A DNA stretch of 64,000 bases, from the IMG/VR virus record IMGVR_UViG_3300045988_175974. One strand, written 5' to 3'. This DNA is from a virus. The notes below the pieces were generated by a model. The model ran no database searches, was not told the DNA's origin, and was given only the letters and a program-made list of their open reading frames with translations. Below, piece by piece: positions 12,441 to 63,777 of the stretch; within the stretch, counting starts at the first letter, position 1; every line of letters begins with the position of its first letter. A program made the translations under genes and the position numbers.

Positions 12441-12473
12441 GCCCAGCGATAGAATCGCTGGGAACGGGGGCGG
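12441..12473 (-). repeat. Hairpin element copy 1
   Basis: Plus strand gCCCAGCGATagaATCGCTGGGaacgggggcggg. It starts right after the portal stop and lies 30 nt upstream of the ATG at 12411. Confidence 0.95.
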
Positions 12474-12474
12474 G

Positions 12475-14178
12475 TTAAGAGGCTTCTTGTTTCGCCACTC
12501 CGGTCTTCGAGTTATCGAGGGTGGTTAATACCTCTCGGTCTATCTGCCACACCAGGTGCTCGTCCCAATCGTTGAATCGGCTCAAAACTTCCAATGGGCG
12601 TATCATCAACTGCTGCAATGGGGCAAACTGAATCTGTTTTACCAGGAAACGTTCTCTCAGGTCGGTACCGCCCGATGATGCCGTATCGCCAGGAGTATTA
12701 CCGATGAGCTTTGCATCAAGACCCATGGCAAAGAAAATAATACTACTTATTTCCTGCAACTCGGTTTTGTCGGCATTCGCCTGATCATTTGCCTTGGTTT
12801 CGATTTCCACGATTTCCCAAGCTTTGTGCTCTTTCCCATCGCTGCCCGTGAAGGCAGAGGAAATGAGCGCCTGACCTGCATTATCGGGATTGGCGAGCCA
12901 TGTATTGATAGAGGTGAAGATTTCGTTCTGAATCTCACCATGGGTTTTCTTTTTCTTCTCACCCTGCTGCTGATAGAGCCTGCTAATATAGTCCTGGTGG
13001 ATATAGATGACACGACCGATGATGTTGCTGTTGCGCTTCCGGGTGAGGCGATCATCTACGATGGTGAAGGCATACTCAAAAATGCTGCCGGCAAAGATGG
13101 AGTGCCAAAGGGCATCGGCATAGTATGGACCGCCGAAATCTCTTGGTGACATGATGAAGCGGGTAGGGCGTTTCTTGCGGCTTACCTGCTTCTGACGTGC
13201 CTCACGGATATTGCGCTGCAAATCCTTTACGGCTGATGTGGTAGGGAGATAAGGGATAGCCGCTATCTTGCGGTCTTCCTCTTTCTGCACGCCGACGTAT
13301 TGGGTAGGGTCGAGCCACTGATTGCTGACGTAGGCATAGTTGATGCGGTAGTTCTCGTCCATGCGCTCCAGTCGGGTAGTGAAGATGCTGCGATGCTTCA
13401 GACCGATTACCTTCGGGGTCCATTGGGCAGTAGGAACAGCTTTGCCGCTTTCGTCGAGGGAACGCTGATTGAGCTGAAGTTCTACAAAGCATTGTGACAT
13501 CAAAGCCATATCTCCTGCCAAATCGAGGAAGGTCTGCATCAGGTCGTTGTTTTCGATGAAATCGCGAACCTGGGCATTGGTTTCTTCCCATTTGTGGAGG
13601 GCTTCTTTCAGAGATTTCATCTCCTCGCTTTCCTCTTCCTTGGCTTTCAGGTCAGCTATCTGACCACGGAGCAGGACTCCTGCACTCTCGTAGGGGATAT
13701 ATTTCTCTGTGATGTTGCCGCCAACGTACTGGGTGTAATGATACTTGGCTGCGGGACCGCGACCTACCAGTATTTTCTTGATGTAATCTACTCCTGCTGC
13801 TGTGAAAGGCGACATGCGCGAGAGCATCCAGATAAGGTTTGGCAGTCGGTTGGCCATACCCCATTCCATAAAGCCTAAGCCTTCGGTACCTACGCCTTTT
13901 GGTTTGCCCAGGTTCTCGCCGCCACTTGATGCAAAGATAGTGGAAACCTGCTGCCGTGCTGCGGAACCGCCTGCGTCGCCACCACTTGCCGACATACCGG
14001 CTGTGGTTAGGAGCATGCCGTGAACGTAGTCGTTCCAGGAAAAGACTTTACCGCCGCCATTTTTAAGCGGCGTAAAGGCATCCGGGCGAACGGCTACATA
14101 GCCTGCATCTTTCAGTTCCTCACTACGATTTTGGAGCTGCTGCAGGTTGGTTACTCTGTTTTTGTTTTTGCTTGCCAT
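12475..14178 (-). CDS. Portal protein candidate (567 aa)
   Basis: The size fits. It has its own late promoter. The C-terminal segment LIGNTPGDTASSGGTDLRERFLVKQIQFAPLQQ resembles portal wing/crown regions. Not verifiable without an HMM search. Confidence 0.5.
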   Translation of the reverse strand: MASKNKNRVTNLQQLQNRSEELKDAGYVAVRPDAFTPLKNGGGKVFSWNDYVHGMLLTTAGMSASGGDAGGSAARQQVSTIFASSGGENLGKPKGVGTEGLGFMEWGMANRLPNLIWMLSRMSPFTAAGVDYIKKILVGRGPAAKYHYTQYVGGNITEKYIPYESAGVLLRGQIADLKAKEEESEEMKSLKEALHKWEETNAQVRDFIENNDLMQTFLDLAGDMALMSQCFVELQLNQRSLDESGKAVPTAQWTPKVIGLKHRSIFTTRLERMDENYRINYAYVSNQWLDPTQYVGVQKEEDRKIAAIPYLPTTSAVKDLQRNIREARQKQVSRKKRPTRFIMSPRDFGGPYYADALWHSIFAGSIFEYAFTIVDDRLTRKRNSNIIGRVIYIHQDYISRLYQQQGEKKKKTHGEIQNEIFTSINTWLANPDNAGQALISSAFTGSDGKEHKAWEIVEIETKANDQANADKTELQEISSIIFFAMGLDAKLIGNTPGDTASSGGTDLRERFLVKQIQFAPLQQLMIRPLEVLSRFNDWDEHLVWQIDREVLTTLDNSKTGVAKQEAS

Positions 14179-14272
14179 TTTTGCGTTTCTTTTTATATGT
14201 TATCCTGAATGTGATTGAAAGAGAGAATGGTGGCGATATACGCACACCCGCTTTTTCTCTTGTTTCTGAGTG

Positions 14273-14309
14273 TAAAGTTAGGGCTTTTTATGGTTTTAGT
14301 GGGGACAAA
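14273..14309 (-). promoter_or_regulatory. Late-type promoter P2 (portal)
   Basis: TTTGTCCCCA-N20-TAACTTTA, 25-nt gap. Strongly similar to P1 across the spacer (TAAAACC..AAAAA). Confidence 0.65.
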
Positions 14310-14317
14310 GAGGGGAT

Positions 14318-14350
14318 GGGACCAGCGATAGAATCGCTGGGAACGGATGC
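14318..14350 (-). repeat. Hairpin element copy 2
   Basis: gggaCCAGCGATagaATCGCTGGgaacggatgc. It sits 12 nt upstream of the TTTG of the portal promoter. Confidence 0.95.
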
Positions 14351-61733: not shown

Positions 61734-61764
61734 AACAACACTTTATTTATCGGTTTATAAATGC

Positions 61765-62481
61765 CTACATCATTCCACCGAAATCGTGATAGTCACGATG
61801 ACTTTCCTGCTCCTTGTCTTCCGGATAAGGCGGCAAGTTCGCATGCAGAAATCGGTCGAGGATCATACTCCTTACCTCCAGCTTGCTCTTGGCTACCCGC
61901 TGCCGGTGTCGCAATATATCAGGCAAACAGATATTCCGAAGCGGGTTCGACCAGTCGGAGGCATTGCTGCAAGCCGAATAGTCAGGATAGAGGACCATTG
62001 CGTAATGCGACAGCTTGCCGTTAGGGGCATCGAGCATCGGCCCCGCCAGGGTAAAAGCCTTCTCCTCGTTGTAGAGAACCAGGTGCGAGGTCTGAGTGCT
62101 TACGTCCTTGTGGCTGGTGTATAAGATGCGGTCCTTATACTCCTGCAGATGAACATCTATCCAGTCTTCCACATTCTTGTCGGTGGAGAGTACCAGGTGT
62201 GTGATCCATTCCCGCTCGAAGCAGGTGCGTAGATACTGGACCATATATCCGGTGGCAGATGTTCTGCTTACGGTCATCGCCAGTACCATCACGCAGAAAT
62301 GGTTCTTCACTGTGCGGTTAGGTGTCGTATCAGTCAAATACCCGATGGCGTGGAAGAATTTATCCAGCAGCACATCGCCGTGAGTATAGAAGCTCAATGC
62401 CCGCCGTGGAGCCTGCATCACTGCCTTGGGCAGCTTCTTATCTACACAGCAGGGAGGTATGAATAACAAAGTATCATCCAT
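61765..62481 (-). CDS. Hypothetical protein (238 aa)
   Basis: Track ORF on the coding strand. Confidence 0.5.
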   Translation of the reverse strand: MDDTLLFIPPCCVDKKLPKAVMQAPRRALSFYTHGDVLLDKFFHAIGYLTDTTPNRTVKNHFCVMVLAMTVSRTSATGYMVQYLRTCFEREWITHLVLSTDKNVEDWIDVHLQEYKDRILYTSHKDVSTQTSHLVLYNEEKAFTLAGPMLDAPNGKLSHYAMVLYPDYSACSNASDWSNPLRNICLPDILRHRQRVAKSKLEVRSMILDRFLHANLPPYPEDKEQESHRDYHDFGGMM

Positions 62482-62508
62482 AATCTTATCAGTATTTCTG
62501 AGAATATA

Positions 62509-63705
62509 TTATTCGTTCAAAATCATCGGCATGAGCAGGGTCAATGCTCGGGGTGAAGACTCGTTGGCGGTGACGACTCCTGCACGGCTTGGGTCGCCCA
62601 GATGAAGGGTGACGGTATCACTTGGGATTGGTGCCAGGACATCGAGCAGACTGCTCGCCTTGAAACCGATGCTATGACCTTCCGGACAGGTGCCGTCGGT
62701 GATGAGCACCTGGTCGTTGGCTGACATATTGAAGTCTAAGTCCTGGGCAGAAATATCGAGGAACATGCCGTCCTTCTTCAGGACGATCAGGTTGCTGCTC
62801 GCGCTGGAGAAGAGTGCCACACGCTTCACTACGCTTGCCAACTCCCGCTTATCTACTGTAACCTTATAAGGGTTGTTGCGAGGAATCACGGAATTGTAGT
62901 TAGGGTATTGGCCCTCTGCCTTCTTGCAGACGAAGGTAATGTCACCTGCCGTGAATCTCACCATGCTCTCATTTGCCTCAATATCAATATCCTCTTCACC
63001 ATCGAAAGCTGAAAAAGTCTTGAAGAAGGAGCTATATACGAGAATCTTTCCCGGTGTTCCGCTACGGAAGAAATTGCTGCCTCCTGTATCAGGATTGTTG
63101 GTATGAATCAGTTTGATGAGGACGTGACCGTTTGAAGCTACAAAGATAACTTCACTTCTATCCTCGGCTACATCGATGCAGAGGCATCTCATCACTGGGC
63201 GAAGCTCGGAATCGGATACAAACTTGCCGGCATGAGAGAGCACATTGCTGAAGGTTGCCATCGGCAGGGAGATGTGAAGACTGGCATTATCGGGCTGCGC
63301 TGCACGAGGGAATGATTCTGCGCTGAAATATACCAGACTGACGTTACCCTTCTTGACGTTATCGCCATTCTGAGTGCAGTACTCAATATTCATTGTGCGA
63401 TTCTTATCCTCAGAGAGGTCCATGGTGACTACGCAGTCAGCAGGGAGTGTGGAGAGGAGAGACAACAGAGACGTGATAGGCAGAACGACATTTTCCTTAA
63501 AGCTGCCCTCTACGATGCTGAGAGGGGCAGGGATGGTGAGCTCCGAATCTGTAGTTGCTGATACGAAGAAGAACTTACCGTCTTCCTTGCGCTGGGTTAA
63601 GAGCACGTTGCTCAAGATGGCGATAGCAGTCTTGCTGTCGATACACTTCGCAGCTTTCTGTAGAGCCTGACGAAGCAAGAGGGATGATTGCGCTTGTATT
63701 TTCAT
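62509..63705 (-). CDS. dnaN: DNA polymerase III beta-type sliding clamp
   Basis: 398 aa. The N-terminus MKIQAQSSLLLRQALQKAAKCIDSKTAIAILSNVLLTQRKEDGKFFFVSATTDSELTI follows the DnaN pattern (L..al..v...i..k...piL..vll......l.l.atD.e). Length fits three clamp domains. Confidence 0.7.
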   Translation of the reverse strand: MKIQAQSSLLLRQALQKAAKCIDSKTAIAILSNVLLTQRKEDGKFFFVSATTDSELTIPAPLSIVEGSFKENVVLPITSLLSLLSTLPADCVVTMDLSEDKNRTMNIEYCTQNGDNVKKGNVSLVYFSAESFPRAAQPDNASLHISLPMATFSNVLSHAGKFVSDSELRPVMRCLCIDVAEDRSEVIFVASNGHVLIKLIHTNNPDTGGSNFFRSGTPGKILVYSSFFKTFSAFDGEEDIDIEANESMVRFTAGDITFVCKKAEGQYPNYNSVIPRNNPYKVTVDKRELASVVKRVALFSSASSNLIVLKKDGMFLDISAQDLDFNMSANDQVLITDGTCPEGHSIGFKASSLLDVLAPIPSDTVTLHLGDPSRAGVVTANESSPRALTLLMPMILNE

Positions 63706-63746
63706 TTTGCTTTTATTTTTTATAGAAATTATATTTTCTTGTTTAT

Positions 63747-63777
63747 GGACCAGCGATAGAATCGCTGGGAACGGTGG
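63747..63777 (-). repeat. Hairpin element copy 12
   Basis: ggaCCAGCGATagaATCGCTGGgaacggtgg. It abuts the stop at 63778 and lies 42 nt upstream of the clamp ATG. Confidence 0.95.

Follow-up and report, generated by a model that had tools for sequence, protein, structure and literature searches.

The 64,000-nt window analysed here, the whole stretch taken from IMG/VR record IMGVR_UViG_3300045988_175974, carries twelve copies of a short hairpin element, scattered over structural and early genes and not confined to one genome end. All twelve are plus-strand matches and lie sense to minus-strand genes, as the original prediction had stated: a search with the 31-mer (up to three mismatches) returned 11 matches, all on the plus strand, against 0 expected from 100 shuffles, and a search with the 19-nt palindrome core returned 12, again all on the plus strand, against 0.29 expected. 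No further copy was found on either strand of the window even at seven mismatches, so the gaps described at 1–12 kb, at 33–46 kb and in the plus-strand operon are real.

In its sense form the element reads GCCYCCGTTC-CCAGCGAT-TCY-ATCGCTGG-TCC. The hairpin proper, CCAGCGAT-TCY-ATCGCTGG, has an 8-bp stem and a 3-nt loop and is a 19-nt perfect palindrome; ahead of it stands a C-rich 5′ tail (GCCYCCGTTC), itself often preceded by CCCC-TTTG, and behind it a 3′ tail of TCC(CC). Hairpin and tail are real, but the conserved unit is longer than first described, spanning in the sense direction a G at −10 to the TCC at +22, in many copies from a C-run at about −20, for a total of some 32–45 nt. The tract 5′ of the hairpin is C-rich and G-poor, the sequence 3′ of the element is A-rich, and the distance to the next ATG clusters at about 30–40 nt in both phage and host (see below). 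The purine loop noted on the plus strand, AGA or GGA, holds for 11 of the 12 copies, copy 8 having TGA. No T-run follows the hairpin, in agreement with the view that it is no classical terminator. By partly direct reading, the element is open in all three sense frames.

Copy 1 (12440..12471; the features located here are all on the minus strand) is intercistronic: ORF 12475-14178 stops 3 nt ahead of it, and the ATG of ORF 11251-12411 follows after 28 nt. Copies 6 (46351..46382) and 9 (56122..56153) hold in their 5′ edges the stop codons of ORFs 46381-47574 and 56153-56899, and stand 47 nt before the ATG of ORF 45944-46303 and 16 nt before that of ORF 55644-56105, respectively. Copy 12 (63747..63778) immediately follows the stop codon of an ORF of 1226 aa that leaves the window; the sliding-clamp gene (62509-63705) has its ATG 41 nt further on. 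Copy 4 (23726..23757) lies 11 nt past the stop of ORF 23769-25058, which follows the head-protease gene, and a canonical hairpin plus T-run comes about 50 nt further on; this intrinsic-terminator-like site (23653..23674; 8 pairs, 5 G-C, T-rich tail) is the top-ranked one on the minus strand, and with a separate terminator downstream the element itself is not the terminator there. Canonical terminators are scarce in 44–64 kb of the window. Copy 2 (14319..14350) falls within the 140-nt leader of ORF 12475-14178, and copy 5 (32835..32866), which has a G-to-A change in the stem, in the long gap that follows the tape-measure gene. Host-type promoters had been proposed to follow both; copy 5 is indeed separated from the ATG at 32705 by sequence with TAnnTTTG and sigma-70-like motifs, but no promoter-like motif turned up behind copy 2, 3′ of which lies a TTTGTCCCCAC motif that also follows copies in relatives.

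Five copies overlap coding sequence, rather than only the two previously placed within genes. Those two, copies 3 (17781..17812, in ORF 16991-18097) and 11 (59152..59183, in ORF 58611-59831), are indeed mid-gene, while copies 7 (54201..54232, with a G-to-A change in the stem), 8 (55090..55121) and 10 (56931..56962) lie in the last 5–17 codons of ORFs 54188-54646, 55059-55637 and 56912-57238; copy 10, in the last 17 codons, is also followed 31 nt later by the ATG of ORF 56153-56899 (248 aa). Copy 3 is translated as T-P-V-P-S-D-S-I-A-G and is kept in 15 orthologues, and copy 11 sits in a variable low-complexity linker where identity is 0.92 for the unit versus 0.32 for the upstream flank. Copy 8 is divergent, with a loop that reads TCA in sense, one stem mismatch that gives a U.G pair, and a different 5′ tail. 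Most copies precede a start codon as claimed, but the count is six or seven at 14–47 nt, not eight at 15–50 nt.

Pairing of the stem is under selection. In the covariance analysis 99% of cells were paired and compensatory double changes were seen at four of the eight stem pairs (21 cells), a result matched by 0 of 500 shuffles; slid registers were just 14–48% paired, and eight orthologues share one fixed compensatory change, from A-U to U-A. One-sided stem changes have no G.U bias toward the sense strand (8 sense versus 11 antisense), and thus the sequence gives no indication of which strand folds. A 50-nt construct in which only the 8-bp stem forms has a predicted folding energy of about −12 kcal/mol (z = −3.9); further flanking pairs bring a 38-nt construct to −14.1 (z = −4.3).

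The exact motif occurs in more than 119 IMG/VR stretches, and the identical sequence in at least two unrelated phage lineages. The lineage of the window (genomes of about 100 kb) has at least 13 copies in 74 kb, or about one per 5 kb, at least 60 times the density in the host. The orientation lock extends to other phage stretches, where the two orientations are far from equal: 226 of 240 oriented copies are sense to local genes (binomial p = 2e-50). At locus L120 (3501-3528) a conserved copy lies antisense within a reverse-strand gene, retaining there the genome-wide orientation. Turnover is slow, as 59 of 64 copies in relatives occupy sites orthologous to those of the window; copies inside coding sequence are better conserved than their flanks and persist throughout the lineage. 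The element is dispensable at individual sites. Among relatives 85–95% identical, a unit of about 40–47 nt is cleanly present or absent at four orthologous intergenic sites, with no consistent target duplications, and the site of copy 1 holds the copy in eight relatives, a (GTAAAAA)n spacer in three and other sequence in one. The element marks mosaic joints: HSP ends fall within 40 nt of copies 35 times versus 6.4 expected, copy 12 being a homology-breakpoint hotspot with 15 such ends. In a second phage lineage, three upstream modules pair with four downstream modules at the element.

The host search returned 116 stretches, nearly all from the gut bacterium Segatella (Prevotella) copri, and the element is restricted to the S. 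copri complex. Exact copies lie in ordinary operons, between trpD and trpC, rhaB and rhaA, and PTS-EIIC and KduI; further neighbours are an aminotransferase, a GT2 glycosyltransferase, a histidine kinase and NlpE. With host sites collapsed to 44 distinct ones, the upstream gene has the same orientation at 33 and the opposite at 2 (p = 4e-8), and contexts are convergent at seven but divergent at none of 39 intergenic sites, which identifies a 3′-UTR or intercistronic element. Many host copies, like phage copy 4, sit between a stop codon and a canonical terminator, the hairpin plus T-run often lying within 30–60 nt 3′ of the element, and between convergent genes a canonical bidirectional terminator is flanked by two copies in an inverted pair. 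Only 1–7 exact copies are present per 3.9-Mb host chromosome. MITE-like near-palindromes have been noted in S. copri (preprint).

The element is a host-type intergenic hairpin module native to the S. copri complex and very dense in this phage. Its place is downstream of genes, in sense: some copies separate cistrons of a single operon, others come between a stop codon and a canonical terminator. It is neither a promoter nor a classical terminator; in particular, with the same element behind ordinary S. copri genes and in two or more unrelated phage lineages, it does not represent a phage-polymerase promoter. We suggest, with a probability of about 0.45 and from sequence comparisons, that it may be a transcribed mRNA-stabilising or -processing hairpin of host origin that doubles as a recombination joint. 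An RNA processing or 3′-end-stabilising site was among the alternatives originally raised and fits the evidence best, although here we infer RNA ends, processing and stability. The element would be transcribed within the mRNA, where a stable RNA hairpin (about −12 kcal/mol) could define or protect mRNA ends: cleavage in the A-rich leader 3′ of it would leave the hairpin to block 3′-to-5′ exonucleases, and this block might set the stability of the upstream cistron, by analogy with REP hairpins in enterobacterial operons. Since stem and tail sequences are near-invariant, a putative sequence-specific factor, most simply one of the host, may also read the element. The ~100-kb phage lineage would have taken it up as standard gene-to-gene punctuation, and the identical 32–45-nt patch repeated in one orientation suggests a possible joint for homologous exchange of gene modules, with the element probably gained, lost or replaced at single intergenic sites. 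Several observations count against an mRNA-stabilising hairpin. Beyond its pairing, the stem sequence itself is almost invariant, which a pure exonuclease barrier would not need; 1–7 exact copies per host chromosome are few for a general mRNA-stability device; for the antisense copy at L120 3501-3528, transcription in the sense of the hairpin would have to be antisense or read-through; there is no G.U strand bias; and individual sites can do without the element.

The main rival, possible but in our judgement doubtful, is a REP/MITE-like mobile DNA hairpin, semi-selfish in phage genomes, whose folded single strand would be read by a host or phage enzyme (e.g. a RAYT/IS200-type HUH transposase) or which spread by recombination; its sequence conservation would then reflect the needs of the enzyme and not an mRNA role. 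Mobility would account for the presence/absence polymorphism at four orthologous sites without consistent target duplications, the identical sequence in host and unrelated phages, the restriction to the S. copri complex, the inverted pairs in the host (as in REPINs) and the orientation kept even inside a reverse-strand gene. Three open sense frames suggest an element tolerated in coding sequence, pairing is selected without strand bias in wobble changes, and the preprint on near-palindromes points the same way. Yet no transposase or HUH domain was found among the families listed (25 of 34 matched) for 74 phage proteins, nor in the 10 large proteins taken from other loci; the host has very few copies, turnover is slow (59/64 orthologous sites) and coding-sequence copies are retained across the lineage. 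Nor does a replication-oriented ssDNA mechanism predict that host copies should share the orientation of the gene upstream, as they do at 33 sites against 2.

Unlikely, in our view, is a duplex DNA site for a sequence-specific protein with a polar effect on transcription or DNA topology: a roadblock of the stoperator kind, for instance, or a site for gyrase or a nucleoid protein like those suggested for certain REP clusters. The very strong conservation of stem and asymmetric tail, the locked orientation, the intergenic placement and the HTH and LysR-type regulators encoded by the phage would suit such a site, but compensatory changes keep intrastrand pairing without gain for a duplex-binding dimer, weakening also the dimeric operator once suggested, and a roadblock would be pointless or harmful at host copies in convergent 3′ UTRs and inside operons. 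We rate lower still a terminator or attenuator for host RNA polymerase that lacks a U-tract and is possibly factor-dependent, in which the C-rich tail would offer Rho a short loading site and the hairpin would cause a pause. Termination would be polar inside trpD–trpC and rhaB–rhaA, a canonical terminator often follows 30–60 nt 3′, the T-run is absent and several copies are within coding sequence, against which stand the position behind stop codons, the C-rich, G-poor upstream tract, the few canonical terminators in 44–64 kb, and copy 5 ahead of promoter-like motifs with no other terminator between. The 30–40-nt spacing to the next ATG in host and phage recalls the suggested 5′-UTR translational operator, bound by a repressor of the downstream gene; this is improbable given the pure 3′-UTR contexts (at seven distinct host sites and at phage copy 4, no gene follows on the same strand or a terminator intervenes) and a hairpin clear of the initiation region. 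An N4-type or other promoter for a phage-encoded RNA polymerase, the resemblance first stressed, is strongly disfavoured and the least probable of all. The template strand does offer a short stem and a 3-nt purine loop with central G, in about half of the copies the loop is GGA and matches N4 in its 5′ G and 3′ A, orientation is locked and most copies are ahead of genes. The proposal nevertheless fails: host copies are 3′ of genes and never in divergent, promoter-type contexts (0/39 intergenic sites), terminators lie 3′ of the element, the closing pair is T:A not G:C, half of the loops start with A, copies are spread across late and early genes, and no RNA polymerase was found among the families listed (25 of 34 matched) for the 74 phage proteins (74 kb) or in 10 large proteins of related loci.

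The N4 virion-RNAP promoters are hairpins with a short stem and a 3-nt loop that has a central purine on the template strand, and they require a G:C loop-closing pair (PMC4496689). Our element shares the stem and the loop with its central template-strand purine, but differs in closing pair, loop 5′ base, copy number and locations; it also occurs in host 3′ UTRs and is not accompanied by a detectable vRNAP. Integron attC sites and Vibrio cholerae repeats, uniform across any one array, are folded-strand elements locked in orientation at the 3′ end of each gene cassette, and cassettes are exchanged at them; in these respects the element resembles them. R/L boxes, extrahelical bases and a GTTRRRY core mark attC sites, which are 57–141 nt long, whereas the element lacks a second box and is a 19-nt perfect palindrome without a nearby integrase. 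The stoperators of cluster A mycobacteriophages (L5 gp71 sites) and the SAS/ESAS of cluster K are dozens of orientation-locked, short conserved sites, placed genome-wide in intergenic gaps beside stop and start codons; stoperators are asymmetric duplex sites for the phage repressor, SAS/ESAS are start-associated, and neither is known from the host. Locked orientation, intergenic placement and nearness to stop and start codons are common to these sites and the element, which differs in its selected intrastrand pairing and in being common to the host. The PeSLs (promoter-early stem-loops) of T4-type phages are small conserved intergenic stem-loop motifs in one orientation between small genes, found at indel and gene-replacement boundaries, where they mediate modular shuffling by homologous recombination (PMC2839356, PMC4122927). 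The element likewise forms one-orientation intergenic stem-loops at module boundaries; unlike PeSLs, which are phage-specific composites of terminator and promoter, it has no evident promoter part or T-run and occurs in identical form in the host chromosome. With the REP/BIME sequences (REP, repetitive extragenic palindrome) of enterobacteria and pseudomonads (REPINs being mobilised by RAYT transposases) it shares a short palindrome whose conserved head is asymmetric, transcribed intercistronic and 3′-UTR positions in ordinary operons, inverted pairs in the host, species specificity, gain and loss without target duplications, and a plausible role as mRNA 3′-end stabiliser. In contrast to REPs, which number in the hundreds, it has 1–7 exact copies per host chromosome, is locked in orientation to the upstream gene, and has neither a GTAG-type head nor a RAYT identified among the proteins searched. 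Its main reservoir is the phage genome, with a copy about every 5 kb and a density no less than 60 times that of the host, a situation that to our knowledge is undescribed for REPs.

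The hairpin element (an 8-bp stem, a 3-nt loop and an asymmetric tail) is real, non-random and under selection. Read on the sense strand it is GCCCCCGTTC-CCAGCGAT-TCY-ATCGCTGG-TCC. Its 31-mer consensus matched the window 11 times at three or fewer mismatches, always on the plus strand (11/11; 0 expected by chance), and its 19-nt palindrome core, CCAGCGAT-NNN-ATCGCTGG, matched 12 times, again only on that strand (12/12 vs 0.29 expected), the twelfth copy, at 55093, being degenerate. The genes flanking the copies lie on the minus strand. The original prediction of 12 copies in one orientation is thus borne out, as is its claim that the element avoids 1–12 kb, 33–46 kb and the plus-strand operon: neither a scan at seven mismatches nor one for every perfect 8-bp/3-nt hairpin added a copy on either strand of the window, and so these element-free stretches are real. 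The copies span 51 kb, head and tail-region genes included, with no inverted pair of elements in the phage window. Placement ahead of start codons also stands, the count being six or seven copies (at 14–47 nt in the window context table) rather than the eight proposed, and the previous stop codon adjoins or falls inside four copies. Two copies (17784 and 59155) do lie mid-gene, as had been stated, with the total of ORF overlaps coming to five once those within last codons (54204, 55093 and 56934) are counted.

The phage itself derives from the human gut and has a genome of ~98 kb; a further locus, L120, lengthens the window by 9.7 kb and carries a thirteenth copy. It is a tailed phage, encoding a 2036-aa tape-measure protein, a head protease and a large terminase (on the plus strand), along with a C5 methyltransferase and a sliding clamp. 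A further set of auxiliary genes (window 3965–6466 and 46–53 kb) is unusual for a phage, comprising a beta-ketoacyl synthase with a phosphopantetheine-binding acyl carrier protein, two radical-SAM proteins, GNAT acetyltransferases, a LysR-type regulator, ThyX and a guanylate kinase. No tRNAs were found in the window, and searches of INPHARED with 12 kb by megablast and with the large terminase by tblastn returned fragments or distant matches only, with no close cultured or annotated relative. No Shine–Dalgarno sequence precedes the start codons of the window, whose leaders are A-rich, a pattern typical of Bacteroidota. A 1226-aa ORF (L120 6248–9928, its 3' end at window 63778) directly precedes the sliding clamp and has no Pfam or PDB sequence match; judged from its position, it may encode a highly diverged replicative polymerase. 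In the sample that yielded the window, this phage region also occurs in a variant form (L121 236–5116; Logan contig ERR636377_19151) with Cas9, Cas1 and Cas2 directly upstream of a 1154-aa ORF and an identical sliding-clamp gene; the phage may thus carry a type II CRISPR-Cas system of its own, and the 13-kb contig contains no CRISPR array. Among other viral contigs with the element, a related or co-occurring one encodes a reverse transcriptase (RVT_1; L076 2125–3573) possibly belonging to a diversity-generating retroelement, and another encodes a 1825-aa polyvalent protein with an ADP-ribosyltransferase domain (L084 131–5608). The group formed by the latter contig and L095 is likely a third phage type bearing the element, because it carries a P22-like portal and an SU10-type capsid protein.

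Pairing within the stem is conserved. Among 278 distinct copies, standard pairs occupy 99.0% of stem cells and double (compensatory) changes occur in four of the eight stem pairs (21 cells); none of 500 column shuffles reached any of the pairing measures, and slid registers were 14–48% paired. Compensatory stem variants have arisen independently in phages and host (CCGGCGAT..ATCGCCGG, CCTGCGAT..ATCGCAGG, CAGGCGAT..ATCGCCTG, CCGAGCGAT..ATCGCTCGG, CCAAGCGAT..ATCGCTTGG and CCAGCGTT..AACGCTGG). Selection thus acts on intrastrand pairing, which is evidence against a simple duplex operator, and the compensatory changes weigh in particular against the operator for a dimeric regulator that had been offered as an alternative. 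The folding strand is not readable from sequence, since one-sided changes giving G.U number 8 on the sense strand and 11 on the antisense strand. As RNA, the 8-bp hairpin alone is predicted to fold at about -12 kcal/mol (z = -3.9), and a 38-nt construct that takes in additional flanking pairs at -14.1 kcal/mol (z = -4.3). Rfam gave no gathering-level match in the window and spurious sub-threshold matches only around one phage copy and one host pair; miRNA-type matches on the long host palindrome described below were likewise spurious.

The exact 23-mer is present in more than 119 IMG/VR stretches and, in a scan of one genome per bacterial species, in 116 stretches, almost all of them Segatella (Prevotella) copri chromosomes and MAGs. 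From 240 oriented copies, the conserved unit extends from G at -10 to TCC at +22, and 226 of these copies are sense to local genes. Three complete 3.9-Mb S. copri chromosomes hold 7, 4 and 1 exact-23-mer stretches, a host count that rises by ~20% under relaxed matching; the window contains 7 exact 23-mers in 64 kb, so that the element is at least 60 times denser in the phage than in the host. In the host the element sits in ordinary operons rather than in prophages, its sites including trpD/trpC, rhamnulokinase/rhamnose isomerase and PTS-EIIC/KduI junctions, with aminotransferase, glycosyltransferase, histidine kinase and NlpE genes as further neighbours. The bounds of the host unit (CCCC-TTTG-CGCCCCCGTTC-hairpin-TCCCC) equal those of the phage unit. 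The element is thus not phage-specific; it is common to the S. copri chromosome and at least two unrelated phage lineages.

Position in the host speaks to a 5' or 3' role. After host loci were collapsed to 44 distinct sites and orientation was counted at the intergenic ones, the upstream neighbour had the element's orientation at 33 sites and the opposite orientation at two (p = 4e-8), and seven sites lay between convergent genes with none between divergent ones. Between convergent genes, two facing copies, 60–90 nt apart, flank a canonical bidirectional hairpin and T-run terminator, the whole lying in a near-perfect palindrome of ~200 bp that has (GGTAAAAA)n arms. Such palindromes are seen at the S. 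copri loci L202 (4120–4370), L176 (3990–4240) and L194 (1230–1400), in the order (GGTAAAAA)n arm, C-rich tract, hairpin element, central bidirectional terminator and mirror image. They may correspond to the 'nearly palindromic ~159-bp MITE-like sequence' that the SPLASH preprint (10.1101/2024.01.18.576133) notes for S. copri, a remark beyond which we found nothing specific in the literature on an S. copri repeat or a REP shared between phage and host. In the phage, copy 4 (23729) lies 11 nt 3' of a stop codon, and the region's best terminator-like site follows ~50 nt downstream of it. Such placement, in host and phage alike, suits neither a promoter nor a 5' leader operator, nor would it be expected of a terminator, because copies lie inside the trp and rha operons and a second terminator stands behind others. 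Taken together, host orientation, convergent sites and the terminators behind copies identify it as a sense-locked intercistronic or 3'-UTR module.

Comparison of related phages reveals both retention and turnover. Copies inside coding sequence are kept in all orthologues, the adjacent linker sequence being full of indels; unit identity is 0.92 against 0.32 and 0.83 in the flanks at copy 59155 and 0.96 against 0.73 and 0.92 at copy 23729, while at copy 17784 unit and flanks do not differ. One copy lies antisense within a conserved reverse-strand gene with an HTH-like N-terminus (L120 3227–3910, minus strand; ~69.8–70.5 kb of the extended window), divergent from the early genes that follow. It is retained in 12 orthologues, with a compensatory A-U to U-A change in 8 of the 12, and its orientation is that of the copies genome-wide, not that of the gene in which it lies. 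Elsewhere the sites are polymorphic: at copy 1 (12440), eight relatives have the element, three a (GTAAAAA)n spacer and one other sequence, and relatives carry a 40–47-nt unit missing from the window at ~6.5, 18.2 and 31.6 kb, with no consistent target duplication. Where homology between the window and its relatives breaks off, the block end lies no more than 40 nt from a copy in 35 cases, compared with 6.4 expected under a uniform model that leaves a preference for intergenic gaps uncontrolled. The second lineage (29 loci of ~60-kb contigs with no nucleotide similarity to the window) has one or two copies per locus within an array of small genes, and there three alternative upstream and four alternative downstream modules occur in many combinations, joined exactly at the element. 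The hairpin element is thus a site of module exchange.

The only protein common to the neighbourhoods of both lineages is a 246–248-aa protein encoded immediately downstream of a copy (window 56153–56899, 248 aa; L065 3954–4694; L025 2269–3009; L117 5655–6395), with 29% identity between lineages. It belongs to PHROG 2600, a ~240-aa family annotated without function (113 representatives at E<=1e-3), and its AlphaFold model was unusable (pLDDT 36). We rejected it as a required factor because it is missing from most lineage-2 variants. The window also has a second orientation-locked intergenic repeat, of ~90 nt, at 3815–3905, 6510–6600 and 18120–18210, all on the minus strand, with three hairpins (GCCCTGAAAGGGC, CCCAGGGCAACACCCTGGG and GCCCTGTAAGGGC) and a terminal AAAAGCTTTTTT. 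This repeat is the sole part of 12–24 kb that matches 'Bacteriophage sp.' fragments in GenBank; its best Rfam match, Acido-Lenti-1, fell below the gathering level (27 bits vs 37), and in one relative (L061) the main hairpin element replaces the copy at 6.5 kb.

The lead mechanism of the original prediction, a hairpin promoter of the kind read by the phage N4 virion RNA polymerase, is wrong. The geometry is similar, with a 3-nt loop on the template (plus) strand in all 12 copies and a stem of 8 bp, one pair longer than the 5–7 bp of the N4 type. However, N4 has three hairpin promoters, confined to the leftmost 10% of its genome and served by a virion-carried RNA polymerase, and these promoters depend on a loop that is closed by G:C and bounded by 5' G and 3' A, together with -11R/-10G/-8G/+1C (PMC4496689). 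In the element, by contrast, every copy closes its loop with T:A, 6 of the 12 window copies have an AGA loop, with a 5' A, and one has TGA, and copies are spread over the sampled genome and into host 3' UTRs rather than being few and early. That one window copy is followed by a terminator, and that host copies lie 3' of genes, also goes against an early-promoter layout. No RNA polymerase family appeared among the matches listed for the 74 proteins of the window and L120 (25 of 34 Pfam families; ~74 of ~98 kb) or in 10 large proteins of related loci. A fixed downstream promoter was rejected too: TATAAT-like strings stand at variable distance, scans for TAnnTTTG or sigma-70 promoters gave no enrichment, and TAnnTTTG does not co-occur with the element. 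Other candidates were rejected as well: for a Chi-like 8-mer (GCTGGTCC resembles E. coli Chi), the sub-motifs are found only within the element; an antisense-strand G-quadruplex was dropped because phage copies, which have TCC only, lack the fourth G-run present in many host copies; and a mimic of CRISPR or solitary repeats finds no arrays at host loci (1–2 matches per 8 kb) or beside the Cas9 locus.

What remains is a conserved, sense-locked, host-shared and pairing-selected element that is neither promoter nor classical terminator. Of the alternatives originally listed, an RNA processing or 3'-end-stabilizing site fits best, given the intercistronic and 3'-UTR placement in the host. Our preferred reading, to which we give a probability of roughly 45%, is of a transcribed hairpin, read by a factor, that sets or protects mRNA ends. 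The element would be transcribed within operon mRNAs, where, on the model of the REP hairpins of enterobacteria, the RNA hairpin would define or protect ends and so make upstream and downstream cistrons differ in stability; a sequence-specific factor would probably read the invariant stem and tail, and the ~100-kb phage lineage would use the element as its standard punctuation between genes. The antisense copy in L120 is the main observation that requires antisense or read-through transcription under this RNA model, and it favours the chief rival, a REP-like mobile single-stranded DNA hairpin conserved for the enzyme that moves it, as do the polymorphic sites among relatives and the sharing of one element by host and phages. 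Yet the locking of host copies to gene orientation, the scarcity of those copies and the absence of a transposase among the matches listed for phage proteins count against such mobility, which we judge unlikely. The RNA-punctuation and mobile-hairpin readings are compatible, not mutually exclusive. A further and rather doubtful proposal is that the hairpin labels DNA or RNA for a dedicated, sequence-specific factor (an RNA-binding or -cleaving protein, or a hairpin-ssDNA enzyme) and serves as a genome-wide code for punctuation and module exchange in the ~100-kb Segatella phages, the few chromosomal copies being either hijacked ancestral host targets or footprints of phage-to-host transfer. If true, gene-expression control would be coupled to cassette-like shuffling among unrelated phages and their host.

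A major bacterium of the human gut, Segatella (Prevotella) copri has, to our knowledge, been the subject of almost no experimental work on phages or RNA. Word-for-word sharing of 32–45 nt between this host and at least two phage lineages offers a testable handle on long one-directional phage operons and a candidate bait for a Bacteroidota RNA- or ssDNA-binding factor. The element also marks points at which phages swap gene modules, and is usable as a host-assignment marker for uncultivated gut phages. It cautions, too, that orientation-locked hairpin repeats in phage genomes need not signal phage polymerases.

Among known systems, the intrinsic terminator differs in that the tail here is TCC(CC) followed by A-rich sequence with no U-tract, canonical terminators following separately. 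Integron attC sites have R''-L''...L'-R' boxes, a GTTRRRY core, a length of 57–141 nt and an integrase, whereas the element has a single 8-bp arm pair, its GTTCCCA misfits GTTRRRY, and no integrase family is among the matches listed for phage proteins (25 of 34 matched families). REP/REPIN-RAYT systems share the short palindrome with an asymmetric head at extragenic positions and, in the host, the inverted doublets (REPIN/BIME), but have hundreds of chromosomal copies against the 7, 4 and 1 exact-23-mer stretches counted here and a GTAG-type cleavage head in place of CCGTTC. Such systems also include a RAYT (Y1 HUH transposase) gene with REPs on its flanks; no Y1_Tnp family is among those same listed matches for the phage proteins. 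The PeSL motifs of T4-type phages behave as module-exchange boundaries (PMC2839356; PMC4122927), a description matched by the mosaic-joint behaviour of the element, which lies at boundaries of indels and replacements between related phages. A PeSL, however, combines a stem-loop terminator with an early promoter, whereas the element lacks a T-run as well as any fixed promoter motif at a constant spacing. The hairpin element thus falls with the intergenic hairpin repeats of REP/PeSL type as a new variant, unusual among them in its strict sense orientation, its near-invariant sequence, its very low host and very high phage copy number, and its sharing between a host and unrelated phages.
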